From sequence record PQ511146.1: DNA of 64,000 nt, one strand, 5' to 3'. How positions within the stretch are numbered: position 1 is the first letter of the stretch; the number at the start of each line of letters is the position of its first letter. Under the pieces are notes generated by a model. That model made no database searches. It was not told where the DNA came from and worked only from the letters and a program-made list of their open reading frames with translations. Position numbers and translations under genes: made by a program. Origin of the DNA: Escherichia phage NHEP1. Of this stretch, positions 20,764 through 34,842 are shown piece by piece.

Positions 20764-23270
20764 CACACAAGTCTGCTTTGCAGGTTTAGCTGCTCAGCTA
20801 AGGTTCTGGAGGCACCTATAACATCTTCCAACTAAATTTCCTACCAACACAGTTACTTACCTACCACACATGACTGTTTGCTTGTTTAGTGAGCAGTCAT
20901 CACTTGACATTCTTGCCTATCTTGATAAAATTAAGTTCTTCTCTTTTCTTTTACCGAGTAATTCGGGTTTTCTGTTCTCTTCGGTTTGAAGGGGTATGGA
21001 GATACACCTGAGTGAACAGGGTGAACAACCGAACCTTTAGCTATGGCATTAGCATGGCGAAGCGGACGGGTGACGAAAGAGGGGCCGGAGGACACCAGTC
21101 ACTGCCATATAGTATATGGGTGATAACCTGAAGAGTCTGAATAAGTGTTTAAGTACCAGTCAGAGGAAAAGGTGAATGGTAGCCGAAGGGGGAGGGGGGT
21201 TTCTTATATCTTTAATTTGTATACTTTATATACACTTGTAAACCAATTCAATTAGAATCTGTTTACCACACAAAGGGGATGGAGACAAATATCACCTATT
21301 AAACTTGAATTATTTATAGAAAATACCACAACACCCGTTAAGTCTTTGATTTTACACACAAATCTTACAAATATCCTACCTCCACATTTAACATACTTGT
21401 AACATATTCCATATCCTACCTGCCTGATCAATTTACTCCATCACATTCCCACATTTTCCCTGTCTGTACTACCCCACCCCCGCCGGGAGTCCCGTCATAT
21501 CTGGCTTTCCAGCAAATATCACACCAACAAATATCATCACCTGAAGAGGGTTTCATCCCATAATACCTGCCTTACCTGAAGAGCGCTTCATACACCACGT
21601 AAATTTTTTAATTGACCCCTCCCCGCCGCCAGAGAGGTTGGCTTTTCCCACACAGGCCTGAAGAGTCAGCCAGAAATATCTGAACAGGCAGTTATGTCCC
21701 GATTTTGTGCTTGTCCTACAGGAGTGCTGCCAGGCGGACGGAATGGGAATACTTCTCATTCTTATAATAATTCTCAAATATCGAGGCAGTGAGGCAAATT
21801 AATAGGCCAGGCCGTTCACACAGTGGCACAACATTTGCAATCTATCTTGTGTGGATGAATGAGAATACCTATCATTGTGAGAATGGTTATCATTACGGGC
21901 AATTTAACATAATACCCATTATGCGCACCACTGGCGATACATACAGGGATTGATAACATGGGTTACTGTTTACGCATATAACAATTATATTTCTTACTAT
22001 TTGTGTGGGATATAGTTAGCAACCAATAGATTAGATATTGACCTGCAGACTTCTGACCGTCCAGACGTCTAAACGCCCACACAACAAGGATTATACATAC
22101 ACTCCTGCATGTAACCAGGGCCGCAAAAATGCTACCATACCAGTTTGTAAATTTTTCATGCAGCACTTGACAAAGAGGAGAAAAACTTGTCTGACACAAT
22201 GTGACAATTTTGTCACTTTTGACACTTTTACCTTTGACACAATATGACACAATAACGGCTGTTACTATTCCATATCTCACTGTTTACGCCTGAATAGTTT
22301 ACGCAAAAACTGTTTACACAGAGATGATAAGCCATGCCATTCGTTTGCATGAAAACAATTAACAAGATAACAATTGACAAGCTAACAGCCAACAAGCTGA
22401 CAGTTAATAAGTTAATAAGTTATGACATAATATAAAAGCAGGGCAACTATTAGAAGATCTATAGTTGCCTTGCTTGTTATGTCATGATTAACTAAATACA
22501 AGGCAACTATGATCTGAATAATAGATTGCAGACAAACTATCACGGGGGTGATTGTTACTGCTTTTATATTATGTCGCGACTCCGTCGCGCCATGCCATTC
22601 GTTTGCATAGTTGCCTTATTGTTACAGGTAAAACAATTACATTATTAATTATTTCTTATCTTTCTCTTAGTCATCTAATGATTCCAGTCAGTATAGTAAT
22701 GTACAGTAAACATTAGACGACTAAATATTTCTCTGTGTATAATAACTTATCGTGACAATTTCGAACTGTTTACGAAAAATGTTGACACCTGAGCTGATTT
22801 ATGTTATGCAGTTTACACGAATAATTATTTTATGCAGGTATTGACTATTCCGTTATTCTGTGGTTGGAATAAATACTTTGCAGACTATAGAATGGCGTGC
22901 GTACGTGAATTCTGAGATCTGGCGGCTATAGTTATACTCGATTTTTCGCGTAGAACACGCTTTCGATGCTGTGTAAGTGTATGACTTATAAAGATTTTTA
23001 GTTGTTGACAAGATATTGGAGATGTGCATCAGGTTAAAATTTGTGCAATAGCGGCATTACGTGCACTTTTGGGAGAGAAAACGGGTAAAAATGGCCCTGC
23101 TACCACACAATGAAAGATTATGCAATAGTTATTTTCCATGTATATTTGTACAGTATGTGGGATTGATGGCTAGTCAATTATTCCACTTGCCAGGTAGGGC
23201 CGTTTATGGTAGGAGAAGAGCAGACAAAAAGAAAGGGGCCTTTAAGCCCCTTGATAATTCAGTTAAGAAA
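20764..23270. repeat. ORF-poor, repeat-dense non-coding zone at the convergence of plus and minus transcription blocks
   Basis: No convincing ORF of 100 aa or more; at least five short repeat families seen (see findings). Confidence 0.6.
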
Positions 23271-24434: not shown

Positions 24435-24537
24435 GGCGTTTTCCTCTCTTCTGGTTGTTGTGTGGGCACTTTTGCCCCTTCAAGGTAAATGCTACCCCAC
24501 CACCCGGCAGATGTCAACGGTTTTTATAGTTTTTTAT

Positions 24538-24588
24538 ATGACAGGCACCCCCGGTGATTGTCTCCCCCCGTCGCCAGGTGCCTGCCGT
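24538..24588. repeat. Imperfect hairpin element (copy A), related in inverted orientation to 33699-33880
   Basis: ACAGGCACCCCCGGTGATTGTCTCCC is the exact reverse complement of GGGAGACAATCACCGGGGGTGCCTGT at 33854-33879. Confidence 0.6.
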
Positions 24589-24639
24589 GAAATAAGCATA
24601 ACAAAAAACAGGACAAAAACAAGCCCTGTTTTGTAAAGA

Positions 24640-33233: not shown

Positions 33234-33633
33234 GATTTTTATCCTCTCTGTTAATTAGTGTGGTGTTGTTCACCTTGCGAGGATAAGAATAACAGAACTA
33301 TCCGAGCTGTCAACCATTAGTTAGAATTATTTTTTGGGCAGAATTCTCCAGCCGCCGCCACTGCCAGGTTAACCATCATTTTTTCGTACTCTTCTTTATG
33401 TTCCAACGCTCCCGCCATAGCCTTTTCAACCAGGGCGATAGCCTCAGCGTCATTAATCGCTACATTTTCCAGGGGGGATCCTATTACCTTTCATTTTTGT
33501 ACCTCTTCTTCAGTTGTTGCCTACCCTGCATAGGCCCACCAGGTTTGCAAGCCTTCATTCTCCCCTACCTGGTCAGTTAGGTCCTGCCAGGCTGGCCCCG
33601 CCAGGTTGCAACGGTTAGCGCATCAGGTTAGAA

Positions 33634-34510
33634 TTTTTTTTTTTTTTGAAAGTGTTGACAGCGGCCCCGCCAGGTGGCACAATATACCTATCGAAAGGAC
33701 GGCAGGCACCGGTGACGGGGGAGACAACCACCGGGGATGGGCGCTGCATAAAATGAGAACGGTTATCATTATCATTTAAAAATTTATGCAAAAAATCCTT
33801 GCTCTCTTTGTCCTGTGTGATACTATAATAACAAGCCGGGGCAACAGGGGCCGGGAGACAATCACCGGGGGTGCCTGTTATTCTGCAAACGAGAATGATT
33901 ATCATTCAAAATTCTAAATGAGAACTTCTCGCATTTCATAAATTTAATTAGCATGCTAATTACCTACCGTGACAATTCTATATAAAATAATACCTCCTTA
34001 AGTATTTCCATATACAAATTTTAAAAATCCATTTCCGAAAACGAAAAATCGCTTTCGTTCCCAAAAATTTCAGGTCGAGCGCCGGAACGATTTCCAGAAA
34101 ATCTGATTCAGAAAACGAAAAACAGATCGAGTACTGAGAAATTTATCGAGAAAAATTTTCAGAAAATTCAATCTTTGAAATGAAAAACAGATCGAGTACT
34201 GAGAGAGATGTGCCTAAACTTCCTGATAATGATGGGCTTATTGTTATAAAAGGCCAGAAGTAAGTTGGGAAAGTTCTGGTAGATGGGTGAGAGTGTGTGC
34301 GGAAAATCTGGAACGGTGATTTGAAGTACGGTGCGAATGATAGAATGAGTAGCGCAGCTTATCGTGCCTGTCTTGAAAAAATCCATTTTAGTTTTCGATC
34401 CATTTTCTGATTTTCTAAGAATTTTAAAATATCCGACTAGGTAAAATATCAAAAGGAGGAAATCTATTTTAGAAACCCTCCTTATACTTGATGTGCCAGG
34501 GATTTTCAAG
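33634..34510. repeat. Repeat-dense non-coding hub: T14 tract, split hairpin element (copy B), direct repeats, 18-bp perfect palindrome
   Basis: T-run 33634-33647; GGGAGACAAYCACCGGGG twice; TAATTAGCATGCTAATTA at 33945-33962; GAAAAACAGATCGAGTACTGAGA twice. Confidence 0.55.
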
Positions 34511-34512
34511 TA

Positions 34513-34842
34513 TCAACTATCTTTGTTTTTAGGCTTGTACATGCGTAGAGGTATAGTTTTTATAACACTCCATCTCCCCAGCCCTTCCCAGTTCCAGTTG
34601 TGGGCATGGTACCCGGTTATGCATGCACTGCTGGCGTGATCATAAGCATAAGAGAACGCTATGCGTAACAAACGAGGCCAGTCTTTCCATGGTTGTGGTC
34701 CGTAAGCTTTTCTCCAACACCGACACAAACTAAATGTCTCAAGAATAGGCAGGATAACAAATCCATACACCGCCACCAGAATGGTCAGCGCAATGATTGT
34801 CAGGAATACATACCCTGCAGTTGAAATAATGATCTCTGTCAT
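34513..34842 (-). CDS. Hypothetical protein with N-terminal TM segment
   Basis: Track ORF 109 aa. Confidence 0.45.
   Translation of the reverse strand: MTEIIISTAGYVFLTIIALTILVAVYGFVILPILETFSLCRCWRKAYGPQPWKDWPRLLRIAFSYAYDHASSACITGYHAHNWNWEGLGRWSVIKTIPLRMYKPKNKDS

Follow-up and report, generated by a model that had tools for sequence, protein, structure and literature searches.

A conserved non-coding hub of tandem promoters, Fur-type operators and iterons in rV5-like phages: a candidate Fur-gated, origin-like control region

A gene-free region shared across the Vequintavirinae

The window, a stretch of 64 kb of phage DNA, belongs to a Vequintavirus, an rV5/FV3-like myophage. Between a minus-strand ORF starting at 33493 and the minus-strand gene at 34513–34842 lies a region without genes (33494–34512), in the following called the hub. 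It had been described before as almost 0.9 kb without a convincing gene; the lack of genes holds, but the size is really about 1.0 kb. The proteins encoded next to it have no known domain. Along the plus strand, a GC-rich imperfect hairpin follows each of two tandem promoters; next come 19-bp palindromes, succeeded by the 300 bp of highest A+T content in the window and by three iterons. The same layout occurs at the same genomic place in Vequintavirus, Certrevirus, Seunavirus, Mydovirus and Henunavirus, hence in at least five genera of the Vequintavirinae, although only about 70 nt of the hub can still be aligned across genera. We checked whether the region might be poorly conserved in relatives, which had been named as an argument against its importance, and found the hub kept throughout the subfamily. 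Homologs were also sought in plasmids and Escherichia coli genomes, with no match except a single Vequintavirus genome that had been deposited as a plasmid.

Several GenBank records place ordinary small protein genes in this gap, but the ORF calls disagree between records and some records have none. A 96-aa ORF on the minus strand (33615–33905) has an uninterrupted frame in 12 of 14 relatives and matches the PHROG family phrog_14993 (E = 4e-63). That family consists of copied annotations of near-identical DNA, which makes the match circular as evidence. Among the 14 relatives, this ORF has 11/14/15 variable sites at the first, second and third codon positions, and the second hub ORF (34168–34509, minus strand) has 54/46/57, so that neither shows the third-position excess of substitutions that we looked for; the flanking gene 34513–34842, used as coding control, has 22/14/57. 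The 96-aa ORF carries a 1-nt frameshift in rV5_ev147, and in AlexBoehm it is cut to 27 aa by a 134-bp deletion that fuses the two hairpin units described below. Its C-terminus shifts with the length of a T run. The start codon is part of a Fur-type box and has no ribosome-binding site upstream, and the other genera possess no counterpart. Because codon periodicity is missing and the frameshift and the deletion are tolerated in relatives, we consider the hub to be non-coding. Together with the conservation in the whole subfamily, this bears out the earlier designation as a non-coding hub, and protein genes at this place appear extremely improbable. The hypothetical proteins that numerous GenBank records place here are probably spurious, and so is the PHROG family derived from them.

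Two tandem promoters directed against the flanking genes

The plus strand of the hub starts with GC-rich repeats of the GGCCCCGCCAGGT type (33533–33610), recognized as repeat family D2 and by pattern search; this type of motif also forms the spacer of the first promoter, and deletions among the repeats occur in several relatives. A run of 14 T residues follows (33634–33647), exactly where the original prediction had placed it. It lies at the position expected for an UP element of the first promoter, about −56 to −43, and is hypervariable: most relatives have AAAAATTTTTT (AAAAATTTTTTGAAAAG is common), others T12 to T15 or longer. Contrary to the previous view of this tract, we regard it as a variable part of the UP element of P1. 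Early promoters with UP elements have been described for the subfamily (PMC7344957).

The first promoter, P1 (33655–33683, plus strand), consists of TTGACA, a 17-nt spacer and the extended −10 element TGgCACAAT with its TG at 33675–76, matching the consensus at 10 of 12 positions. The TTGACA-N17-CACAAT element had been noticed at these very coordinates. P1 is unchanged in 14 Vequintaviruses, and the other genera have a TTGACR promoter in the same position. The second promoter, P2 (33799–33829, plus strand), had been missed. It consists of TTGCTC, a 16-nt spacer and TGaTACTAT, with TATAAT at a 19-nt spacer as an alternative −10 element, and is directly preceded by an A/T-rich stretch (33779–33797). 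P2 is kept within Vequintavirus, and TTGCAA-N17-TATATT takes the same position in other genera. Both promoters, with their A/T-rich upstream tracts, are retained in every genus examined and face against the flanking genes. Judging from the −35 elements, the spacers of 16–17 nt, the extended −10 elements and the UP elements, P1 and P2 are predicted sigma-70 promoters that would be expected to fire. For the plus-strand transcript suggested earlier, the sequence thus offers two conserved promoters instead of one. A nut/boxA-like antiterminator at P2 was considered and rejected: TGCTCTCTTT is boxA-like in this genome only, the relatives have TGCTTTCTTT, and nothing similar exists in other genera.

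Hairpin units and the possibility of a non-coding RNA

Behind each promoter lies a GC-rich imperfect hairpin on the plus strand. Unit A (33702–33747), found by pattern search, carries GGGAGACAACCACCGGGG at 33719–33736 and folds with −20.1 kcal/mol (z = −1.9). Unit B (33835–33886) has the core GGGAGACAATCACCGGGGGTGCCTGTTATTC and was recognized by distant search, pattern search and folding; it is the sole part of the hub that blastn still detects in other genera. A third copy of the element (24528–24590, minus strand; −24.6 kcal/mol, z = −3.6) has no box and is located between a terminator and a promoter TTGACA-N17-TAGCAT. All three contain the repeat GGGAGACAAYCACCGGGG (at 33719, 33853 and, on the minus strand, 24549), which had escaped notice.

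These elements could belong to a non-coding RNA locus, in which P1 and P2 yield either abundant short structured RNAs, corresponding to the hairpins, or one long transcript that extends in antisense direction towards the genes upstream, with an action in trans or in cis on messages of host or phage. The strong promoters are conserved without a plus-strand ORF downstream, no stretch of the hub is better conserved between genera than the first ~50 nt of the predicted P2 transcript, and the other genera have a second highly conserved sequence of ~90 nt after P1. The outer stem of unit B has a 5′ arm that varies by genus (AUAGCGGG, AACAGG, AUGGCG, GGCAGGCACC) yet in each case is able to pair with the conserved 3′ arm; the pairs are preserved through changes from G-C to A-U and many G-U pairs, the latter working on the plus strand only.

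The covariation check across relatives, which had been proposed with the original prediction, gave a divided picture: the outer stem is kept through the changes in its 5′ arm, but RNAalifold leaves only five consensus pairs with a covariation term near zero. The CCGG/CCGG pairing of the inner stem is nearly invariant and therefore uninformative for covariation. The z-scores of hairpin folding are modest, from −0.2 to −2.7, with ordinary values of −1.0, −1.9 and −0.2, and no intrinsic terminator or U tract follows either hub hairpin. Rfam gave no match for the whole window at gathering score and only chance-level matches at E values up to 10 for the hub and five loci of other genera; the search for tRNA and tmRNA genes found none. 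The copy at 24.5 kb and its Mydovirus counterpart lie behind a terminator without a promoter of their own, and the operators and iterons would be unaccounted for. Of the proposed antisense or non-coding RNA locus, the conserved plus-strand promoters thus stand, but the case for a discrete RNA has become weaker, and we regard this explanation as unlikely. Another candidate suggested by the repeats, a counterpart of the pseudo-ToxI antitoxin mimic of phiTE with its 36-nt ToxI-like repeats, was rejected: the mimic is located at 106.7 kb and the phiTE homolog of the hub at 39.6 kb, 67 kb away.

Palindromic boxes with the sequence specificity of Fur

Downstream of unit A lies a first palindromic operator, A (33752–33776; AATGAGAACGGTTATCATT), recognized by pattern searches and overlapped by a weaker second site (33758–33776). 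It has 2 mismatches to the consensus and a matrix score of 28.1. Unit B is followed by operator B1 (33888–33906; AACGAGAATGATTATCATT), with one mismatch to AATGAKAATNATTMTCATT and a score of 28.5, which is invariant in relatives save for one substitution at 33890 (HMD-6). Exactly 29 bp after B1, the box census located the degenerate operator B2 (33917–33935; score 16.6). Three further operators of this type (21742, 21858, 21876; region 21742–21894), which the pattern searches and the scan with the matrix brought up, lie in the other hub of the window, likewise non-coding, at 20.8–23.3 kb. Matches to AATGAKAATNATTMTCATT number six in the window against 0.22 expected, all of them within the two hubs. 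The motif GAGAAYGRTTATCATT, previously reported in duplicated units, occurs three times in 64 kb (33755–33770, 33891–33906 and 21879–21894; shuffles give 0.27). Both units in the present hub and the copy in the other one are real, but their coordinates had been given 1–2 nt and 12 nt off, respectively. Beyond the window, phage 4MG has the perfect box TGATAATgATTATCA, the perfect box palindrome is present in more than 120 viral contigs, and every genus with more than one 19-bp box has a tandem spacing of 29 bp.

The consensus AATGAKAATNATTMTCATT is like the boxes of the Fur regulon, which are 19-bp palindromes with a 7-1-7 arrangement (TGATAAT-N-ATTATCA). For a test of specificity, we built a matrix from phage boxes only and scanned 50 kb of E. 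coli K-12. The four best hits, scoring 15.0–16.0, were in the promoter regions of fepA-fes, fepB-entC (two) and fepD-entS, compared with 9.4 for the fifth-best match and 1.2 for the 99.9th percentile. These promoters are Fur-regulated, and the matrix thus singled out the three bidirectional ent/fep promoters. Moreover, the left half-site TGAGAAT is identical to that of the aerobactin iucA operator. By sequence specificity, the GAGAAYGRTTATCATT motif is a Fur-type operator, an identity not seen in the original prediction, and Fur would be expected to bind the phage sites.

The phage boxes differ from the Fur regulon in belonging to a virulent phage without an adjoining iron-related gene, in the tandem spacing of exactly 29 bp and in their position. 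Usual Fur operators overlap the −35 and −10 elements, whereas those of the hub lie ~55–100 nt downstream of the predicted starts of P1 and P2, clear of both elements. A Fur-repressed minus-strand promoter overlapping B1 (TTGAAT-N18-CAGAAT) looked favorable in the window by its geometry but was discarded: its −11A is lost in Mydovirus and phiTE (CTGAAT/CGGAAT in other genera), and the T5-type copy has no −35 element at all. We also rejected RNA hairpins as an explanation of the boxes. Mixed half-sites such as TGAGAAT..ATTATCA are frequent and would cause a G-A mismatch in the middle of the stem, so that recognition as DNA fits better.

The most A+T-rich DNA of the window and three phased iterons

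The segment from B1 onward (33888–34187) has 70% A+T and is the most A+T-rich 300 bp of the 64-kb window; the hub also contains the second least stable 100 bp. Within this segment lies the 18-bp palindrome TAATTAGCATGCTAATTA (33945–33962), which occurs once in the window (0.03 expected). It had been pointed out as perfect, which applies to some genomes only: in most relatives it is imperfect without compensating change, hence not conserved as a palindrome. It resembles TTAGCCTGCTAAT of the T5-type repeat region.

Iteron 1 (34024–34070; repeat family D3), degenerate and not noticed before, forms on the minus strand a 17-bp hairpin followed by U5, detected in the terminator scan (−14.9 kcal/mol, z = −3.0). 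Iteron 2 (34098–34140; AAAATCTGATTCAGAAAACGAAAAACAGATCGAGTACTGAG) and, 65 bp after it, iteron 3 (34163–34204) were defined from the repeats and a census in ten genomes. The two copies of GAAAAACAGATCGAGTACTGAGA of the original prediction are present here, although one base away from the positions given (34117–34139 and 34182–34204), and turned out to be the ends of longer 55-nt repeats with a third unit. In the census, nine of the ten genomes had three iterons each, spaced 63–67 and 74–78 bp. Each is ~36 bp long and has two sub-sites 23 bp apart. The iteron sequence varies by genus (GATCGAGTAC, CGATCGAGACC, CTCAAGTC), whereas the Fur box is constant.

Beyond the iterons, a fast-evolving spacer with indels of 1 and 2 nt (34205–34375) has a column identity of 0.76–0.86, compared with 0.95–1.0 in its flanks. 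In the conservation profile it is followed by a near-invariant A/T-rich block (34376–34451) containing AAAATATCC (34426–34434) and AAAATATCA (34443–34451), at the position of which other genera have AAATATC repeated two to five times. The hub closes with a minus-strand hairpin, AAGGAGG...CCCTCCTT (34454–34483; −19.7 kcal/mol, z = −2.4). Since UUUGAUAUUUU follows it on this strand, it is likely the terminator of the gene 34513–34842.

The repeats raise the question of packaging or recombination, with the hub as a pac site whose GATC repeats are read by the terminase, as in phage P1, or as a recombination hot spot whose repeated promoter-hairpin cassettes serve mainly to shuffle the genome. The genome of phiTE, a member of the subfamily, is terminally redundant and circularly permuted, which points to headful packaging, and the hubs of other genera have 6–10 GATC sites compared with ~4 expected. 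The Vequintavirus hub contains only three such sites and is not enriched; it lies in the early region, distant from structural and terminase genes, and the genome records of relatives do not preferentially begin there. Concerning recombination, the hub is, by description, like the PeSL cassettes of T4-type phages, modules for shuffling in which an early promoter precedes a stem-loop and which exist in several copies. The natural AlexBoehm deletion runs exactly between two repeat copies, and deletions have occurred among the GC-rich repeats of several relatives. However, recombination is a side effect to be expected of any repeats, and the hub element, unlike PeSL, has only three copies in 64 kb and is linked to operators and iterons at a fixed locus with conserved synteny. 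We consider a primary role in packaging or recombination very unlikely.

Similarity to repeat region 3 of T5-like phages

The closest look-alike of the hub is repeat region 3 of T5, a candidate injection stop signal that is not considered an origin (Davison, bioRxiv 10.1101/866236). According to this work, the T5 region is conserved and non-coding, with palindromes PalD-J of unexplained role; Fur is not mentioned. Both regions are ~1 kb long, non-coding, and conserved within their families above the level of the neighboring ORFs. Both have a GC hairpin that passes directly into ATTCT and a box of the Fur type, together with more boxes at 29 bp, a TTAGCNTGCTAAT motif and a lineage-specific array of direct repeats. 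In the left terminal repeat of Tequintavirus chee24 (9.1–9.7 kb), the GC hairpin and ATTCT with its Fur box are accompanied by 5–7 further boxes spaced 29 or 35 bp, the TTAGCCTGCTAAT inverted repeat, a LexA box, paired DnaA boxes and 8–9 short direct repeats. Local alignment of the hairpin-plus-box module between hub and T5-type region scored 39, compared with 16 ± 2 for shuffled sequences; a weak similarity persists in the same order in the flanks without the box (p about 0.002–0.03), and blastn from the T5-type region reaches the hub of CR3.

The similarity suggests that the hub could serve host factors as a docking site or decoy, in which arrays of Fur operators and lineage-specific repeats bind or titrate regulators. 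It would anchor or organize the DNA on entry, or relieve the Fur regulon of repression with the rising number of phage genomes, and would not initiate replication. The wide occurrence of the perfect box palindrome among viral contigs agrees with a decoy. However, the Vequintavirus hub has neither DnaA nor LexA boxes, and its two or three boxes are few for titration. It is internal to a block of early genes, and the circular permutation of the phiTE genome argues against a fixed end of entry. In T5 the paired DnaA boxes lie within the IRD'/IRC' inverted repeats, next to a LexA box, the direct repeats are 8–9 short ones instead of three long ones, and the region is part of the terminal repeat. 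The two strong promoters of the rV5 hub are a further difference from T5 and, like the three phased iterons, are left unexplained by docking or titration. We therefore judge this alternative doubtful.

A related and equally speculative idea, which we think would rather fail than hold, is that the rV5-like myophages and the T5-like siphophages, virulent phages of enterobacteria from families unrelated to each other, have one class of non-coding hub in common. In it, phased operator arrays for global regulators of the host would be connected with repeats specific to the phage. The regulator would be Fur in both, with LexA and DnaA in addition in T5, and PalD-J would be Fur boxes.

A candidate promoter-driven, Fur-gated origin

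Our preferred, though still tentative, explanation is that all Vequintavirinae have inherited the hub as a non-coding control region acting in cis, and that it functions as a promoter-driven, Fur-gated, origin-like region; we put its chances somewhat below even. At the sequence level it is supported by the non-coding status, the conserved promoters, the specificity of the Fur boxes, the low duplex stability and, for the iterons, their number, their phasing and a sequence particular to each lineage. Early in infection, host sigma-70 RNA polymerase would fire P1 and P2 against the flow of early genes. Each transcript would start with a GC-rich hairpin and then reach one or two operators of Fur specificity. 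Past these, transcription would enter the most easily melted DNA (33888–34187) and the three phased iterons (34024–34204), the direction in which both promoters point. It might open the duplex there, or leave an RNA primer, for a T7-like primase-helicase and the polymerase of the phage, with the iterons bound by a co-evolving phage-encoded protein. Fur-Fe at the operators would gate the amount of transcription passing through, and we propose that the start of replication, which we place here by inference, would in this way be coupled to the iron state of the host.

The arrangement has parallels in known origins. The primary origin of T7 consists of the tandem promoters 1.1A and 1.1B followed by an A+T-rich stretch; T4 oriF and oriG combine a promoter with an unwinding element, and T4 oriE has iterons. 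In analogy, the two strong tandem promoters of the hub may be seen as leading into DNA of the highest A+T content and lowest stability, behind which direct repeats follow. The hub promoters differ in being of the host sigma-70 type and opposed to the neighboring genes, and in the Fur-type operators between promoters and A+T-rich zone. The likeness to T7 extends to the T7-gp4-like primase-helicase reported for rV5; in the rV5 paper, skew analysis for an origin failed and the present stretch was marked as an unexplained "non-coding" box.

With the iteron origins (lambda ori, P1 oriR, RSF1010 oriV), the hub shares at least three regularly spaced direct repeats beside an A+T-rich stretch, and the sequence of these repeats depends on the lineage, as though each set had been fitted to a binding protein of its own. 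It differs in its long repeats, ~36 bp and 63–78 bp apart, and in the outcome of the search for an initiator gene and DnaA boxes, which found no DnaA boxes in the hub and no initiator gene adjoining it, but TTATACACA at P2 in Certrevirus and Mydovirus. The 279-aa neighbor of the hub in other genera (CR3 gp127 type) was rejected as initiator, having no homolog in the window. The replication origin of the original prediction hence gains tandem promoters that lead into the most A+T-rich 300 bp and three iterons, but has no DnaA box or adjoining initiator gene. GC skew at the hub merely tracks gene orientation. The other hub at 20.8–23.3 kb is equally A+T-rich, also has Fur boxes and would be an equally good origin candidate. 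Our literature search returned no transcriptome, Fur-binding or replication-origin data for any member of the Vequintavirinae.

Phages like rV5 are candidates for therapy with a broad host range, and the present analysis names concrete promoters, operators and iterons that bear on their replication origin and early regulation. If the hub class is indeed shared with T5-like phages, a strictly lytic phage would read the iron status of the host, or rewire its iron regulon through titration of Fur, to time DNA entry or replication, and the same boxes would offer a new reading of the long-puzzling injection-stop region of T5. If Fur binds the hub, a virulent phage would tie its early program to the availability of iron, a dominant variable in the gut.

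Genomic setting and coding status of the gap

The segment 33300–34900 has matches in 121 phage records, the best of them in the Vequintavirus group of ECP2303, YN3, FV3 and rV5 (93–94% identity). It contains the hub, a gene-free gap at 33494–34512 within a long minus-strand block of small ORFs of the early-region type. Across the entire window, searches for tRNAs and for Rfam families (gathering score) were negative. Among the related records, an E. coli "plasmid" of 137.6 kb (CP057073.1) and 16 "Campylobacter phage" records (MG0656xx) are Vequintavirus genomes with about 88–90% identity to the window, and are probably mislabelled or contaminants.

The gap is largely filled by two minus-strand ORFs of 96 aa (33615–33905) and 113 aa (34168–34509), and its GenBank annotation is inconsistent, with one ORF, both, different ORFs, or none. 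We aligned the window with 13 other Vequintaviruses and counted variable columns per codon position, yielding 11/14/15 for the 96-aa ORF and 54/46/57 for the 113-aa ORF, compared with 22/14/57 for the neighbouring gene at 34513–34842. In rV5_ev147, a 1-nt frameshift lies midway in the 96-aa ORF, and in AlexBoehm a 134-bp deletion, reaching exactly from the first to the second GGGAGACAA repeat, cuts it to 27 aa. The AlexBoehm deletion also shows that the phage can do without one of its two promoter-hairpin-box units. A Pfam search with the gap ORFs gave no match, and the PHROG match of the 96-aa ORF is mere copied annotation. Together, the codon-position counts, the frameshift, the deletion and the empty Pfam search firmly show 33494–34512 to be non-coding, as originally predicted for 33634–34510; small protein genes were rejected on these grounds and are hardly credible here. 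Just outside the gap, a G7 run (33471–33477) interrupts the minus-strand ORF starting at 33493, a homologue of FV3_00181 (58 aa). This run also occurs in HMD-6, other Vequintaviruses having shorter G runs and an intact frame, and it reflects a genuine frameshift or else a sequencing error in the homopolymer.

Conservation of the hub within and beyond Vequintavirus

Within Vequintavirus, the blocks 33640–33960, 34000–34205 and 34375–34480 are nearly invariant, and the spacer at 34205–34375 evolves fast, with 1- and 2-nt indels. Every feature named in the original prediction is present in the sequence. It had missed a second promoter (33799–33829), the 18-nt repeat GGGAGACAAYCACCGGGG (33719, 33853 and, on the minus strand, 24549) and a third iteron, the degenerate unit of the 55-nt repeat family at 34024–34070. 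The perfect 18-bp palindrome at 33945–33962, occurring once in the window, is real, but it is imperfect in most relatives (TAGTTAGCATGC... or ...GCACGC...) without a compensating change, and its perfection here means little.

In a sensitive search, only about 70 nt (33838–33930) were recovered in other genera of the Vequintavirinae, including Certrevirus (CR3, phiTE, F5M2A), Seunavirus (4MG, GE_vB_MG), Mydovirus (KpS8, Mydo, AV124), Henunavirus (Hena1) and ABPH49. In each genus, the match lies in identical orientation in a gene-free gap of 0.85–1.0 kb inside a minus-strand block. Scans of IMG/VR and metagenomes added 19 related loci and two chance matches. Read side by side, all genera share one plus-strand order of nine parts: an A/T tract followed by promoter P1 (TTGACR, a 17-nt spacer and a −10 element), a conserved transcribed segment, a further A/T tract followed by promoter P2 (TTGCAA-N17-TATATT; in Vequintavirus TTGCTC-N16-TGaTACTAT), an imperfect GC-rich hairpin, one to four 19-bp palindromes ("boxes"), three long direct repeats (iterons), a variable stretch, two to five AAATATC repeats and the end of the upstream gene. 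Conservation across the subfamily is thereby firmly established at the sequence level, and the poor conservation in relatives that would have spoken against the original prediction was not observed. In Vequintavirus, the segment after P1 is replaced by a second hairpin-plus-box unit, which explains the duplication noticed originally.

In the other genera, P1 is followed by a nearly invariant sequence of ~90 nt, GACGCCACCCCACGGCGAAAAGGCGGGGCTAAC...GGAAGGTGGATCGCCGGTAG (positions 2325–2420 in L005, one of the loci fetched from other phages and numbered internally; also in L003, L004, L006 and L058). Because it is predicted to fold into a multi-stem or pseudoknot structure without an Rfam match, it may be an undescribed phage RNA. 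Seunavirus and Mydovirus carry an extra plus-strand promoter and a gene for a 63-aa DUF7170 protein before P1 (L004 2067–2258, L006 2066–2257), of which tblastn found no homologue in the window.

Two predicted promoters directed against the flanking genes

P1 (TTGACA-N17-CACAAT, 33655–33683) lies where it had been placed, matches 10 of 12 consensus positions and has a TG extension, as does P2. Both are oriented against the flanking genes and are firmly supported as conserved, strong predicted promoters. The T14 tract, confirmed at 33634–33647, spans about −56 to −43 relative to P1, which is UP-element territory. It is hypervariable, reading AAAAATTTTTTGAAAAG in most genomes and T12 to T15 or longer elsewhere, and the form common in relatives agrees with the published UP consensus.

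Early promoters of the subfamily consist of an UP element, a −35 and a −10 element according to the CB7 paper (PMC7344957). P1 and P2 are missing from the 33 promoters listed in the rV5 paper because only gene-upstream regions were searched there; of the promoters it does list, P195A corresponds to the window promoter at 33313 and P168 to the one at about 24510. The rV5 map shows an unexplained "non-coding" box, and the skew analysis in that paper failed to locate an origin. In Certrevirus and Mydovirus, the −10/+1 region of P2 overlaps TTATACACA, an oriC-R2-type DnaA box (L005 2476, L003 2476, L006 2465) that Vequintavirus lacks. Six GC-rich motifs containing CCWGG ([GA]CCAGG[TC]) lie in 330 bp upstream of or inside P1 (33354–33680), and deletions among these differ between relatives.

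Palindromes of 19 bp with the sequence specificity of Fur operators

A census of the boxes gave the consensus AATGAKAATNATTMTCATT. At ≤3 mismatches, the window has six sites versus 0.22 expected, all confined to the hub (33752, 33758, 33888) and to the other non-coding region at 20.8–23.3 kb (21742, 21858, 21876). Most genera examined have two or three boxes in tandem, with a step of exactly 29 bp from one to the next; in the window, 33888 is followed 29 bp later by a weaker site at 33917. The motif GAGAAYGRTTATCATT, originally described as duplicated in the hub with a distant third copy, does occur three times (33755–33770, 33891–33906, 21879–21894; 0.27 expected), although the original coordinates deviate by 1–2 nt for the two hub copies and by 12 nt for the third.

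Phage 4MG has a perfect 7-1-7 Fur motif, TGATAATgATTATCA. For an independent test, a weight matrix derived solely from 20 phage boxes was applied to a 50-kb stretch of E. coli K-12 that surrounds the enterobactin cluster. The top four matches scored 15.0–16.0, the fifth 9.4 and the 99.9th percentile 1.2. These four fall into the intergenic regions fepA-fes, fepD-entS and fepB-entC (two matches), which are the three textbook bidirectional promoters under Fur control within the scanned 50 kb. The half-site TGAGAAT is identical to that of the aerobactin operator, whose sequence we verified in plasmids directly upstream of iucA. We also considered the boxes as RNA stems, but mixed half-sites such as TGAGAAT..ATTATCA are common and would place a G-A mismatch in the middle of the stem, which makes recognition at the DNA level the better reading. 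They are constant across genera whose remaining non-coding DNA has diverged beyond recognition, which fits a conserved host protein. The motif comparisons thus firmly identify the palindromes as Fur-type operators, with Fur specificity at the sequence level for those of the hub.

In the 20.8–23.3 kb region, two of the three boxes (21742–21894) are adjacent and overlap a possible minus-strand promoter, TTGCCC-N17-CACAAT, in a classic repression geometry. In an unrelated viral contig (IMG/VR 3300042896_000600; L112 1810–1888), three perfect AATGAGAATCATTCTCATT boxes follow one another at intervals of exactly 30 bp ahead of a promoter-like site, and phased Fur-box arrays may thus be widespread in phages.

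A likely RNA hairpin

The 3′ arm of the hairpin, CACCGGGGGTGCCYGYYATTC, is highly conserved, and each version of the 5′ arm pairs with it (AUAGCGGG in Certrevirus and Mydovirus, AACAGG in the window, AUGGCG in others, GGCAGGCACC in a copy at 24.5 kb). G-C to A-U exchanges occur in the stem between CR3 and both the window and Hena1, and at position 3 in locus L025; there are also many G-U pairs, which can form on the plus strand only. In the covariation check, outer-stem pairing was kept between genera, but RNAalifold retained five pairs with a covariation term of almost zero. Folding z-scores are ordinary (−1.0 and −1.9 for the units after P2 and P1 in the window, −0.2 for KpS8, −2.7 for CR3). 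No U tract follows the hairpin, and the conserved ATTC behind it is readable as an additional degenerate Fur half-site. The third copy, on the minus strand at 24528–24590, folds best (z = −3.6) and lies between a terminator (AACAGGGC..GTCCTGTTTTTT) and the P168 promoter TTGACA-N17-TAGCAT. In Mydovirus, the counterpart of this copy has a Fur box and is similarly placed after a terminator and before the next promoter, so the element is not always promoter-driven. A plus-strand RNA hairpin is likely, not proven. That the hub is a non-coding RNA locus would account for promoters and hairpin, but leaves the remaining features unexplained and lacks a terminator; we consider it rather unlikely.

Phased iterons in A+T-rich DNA

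Three direct repeats are present in nine of ten genomes examined, GE_vB_MG having two with the motif used, at spacings of 63–67 and 74–78 bp. Each comprises two sub-sites 23 bp apart, joined by an A-tract: [AATACGATC]-N14-[CGATCGAGAMCC]. The Vequintavirus version reads AAATCYGATTC...CAGATCGAGTAC and that of Hena1 AAATCCA...CTCAAGTC. The sequence is thus lineage-specific, with constant number, spacing and orientation, as would be expected if the repeats were bound by a phage protein that co-evolves with them. The predicted 23-mer pair was recovered at 34117–34139 and 34182–34204, both within 55-nt repeats; the degenerate first iteron of Vequintavirus forms a minus-strand 17-bp hairpin followed by U5 (z = −3.0). 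The hub contains the A+T-richest 300 bp of the 64 kb (33888–34187, 70%) and the 100-bp stretch with the second-lowest stability, only three GATC sites and no DnaA box. We regard the iteron triplet, phased and specific to each lineage within DNA of very high A+T content, as firmly supported. At 34454–34483 lies a hairpin followed on the minus strand by a U-rich tract; it is a probable terminator of the upstream gene that would keep minus-strand transcription from running into the hub.

Resemblance to T5 and a possible replication origin

The perfect box palindrome occurs in >120 IMG/VR contigs, six of which are T5-like genomes. In Tequintavirus chee24, it lies in the left terminal repeat at 9.1–9.7 kb. 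From one end to the other, this stretch has a GC hairpin with AATTCTCA and a box immediately behind it, then an inverted repeat (TTAGCCTGCTAA...TTAGCAGGCTAA), a LexA box of near-perfect sequence (TACTGTATATTTATACAGTA; L045 3100–3950, record 9.1–9.9 kb), the known paired DnaA boxes, five to seven further boxes at 29 or 35 bp spacing and eight or nine TGTGCRAATCCGACA repeats. This matches Davison's "repeat region 3", a candidate injection stop signal, described as a conserved non-coding stretch packed with palindromes that lack an explanation, PalD-J (bioRxiv 10.1101/866236); Fur and LexA sites are not mentioned in that paper. The T5-type hairpin-plus-box module aligns to the window with a score of 39 versus 16 ± 2 for shuffles, and its flanks without the box show weak similarity in the same order (p about 0.002–0.03). 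We regard the modules as genuinely similar, which falls short of proving common descent. A T5-like docking or decoy region for host factors would explain the boxes well, but promoters and iterons poorly, and is a doubtful reading. A packaging or recombination site is very unlikely.

There is prior work on phage origins, on Fur boxes and on the T5 repeat region. In the literature we found no account of how the hub is built, nor of virulent phages with arrays of Fur-type operators or of a similarity between rV5 and T5. In the arrangement proposed here, the tandem promoters would direct transcription past gating operators into a readily unwound zone that contains iterons, as expected of a transcription-activated replication origin, for which the T7 primary origin and T4 oriE/F/G are models. 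The rV5 paper reports a T7-like primase-helicase in the phage. We tentatively suggest that the hub may be such an origin. The 20.8–23.3 kb region shares Fur boxes and A+T-richness with the hub and is an equally good candidate. These findings lead to direct experiments on the hub.
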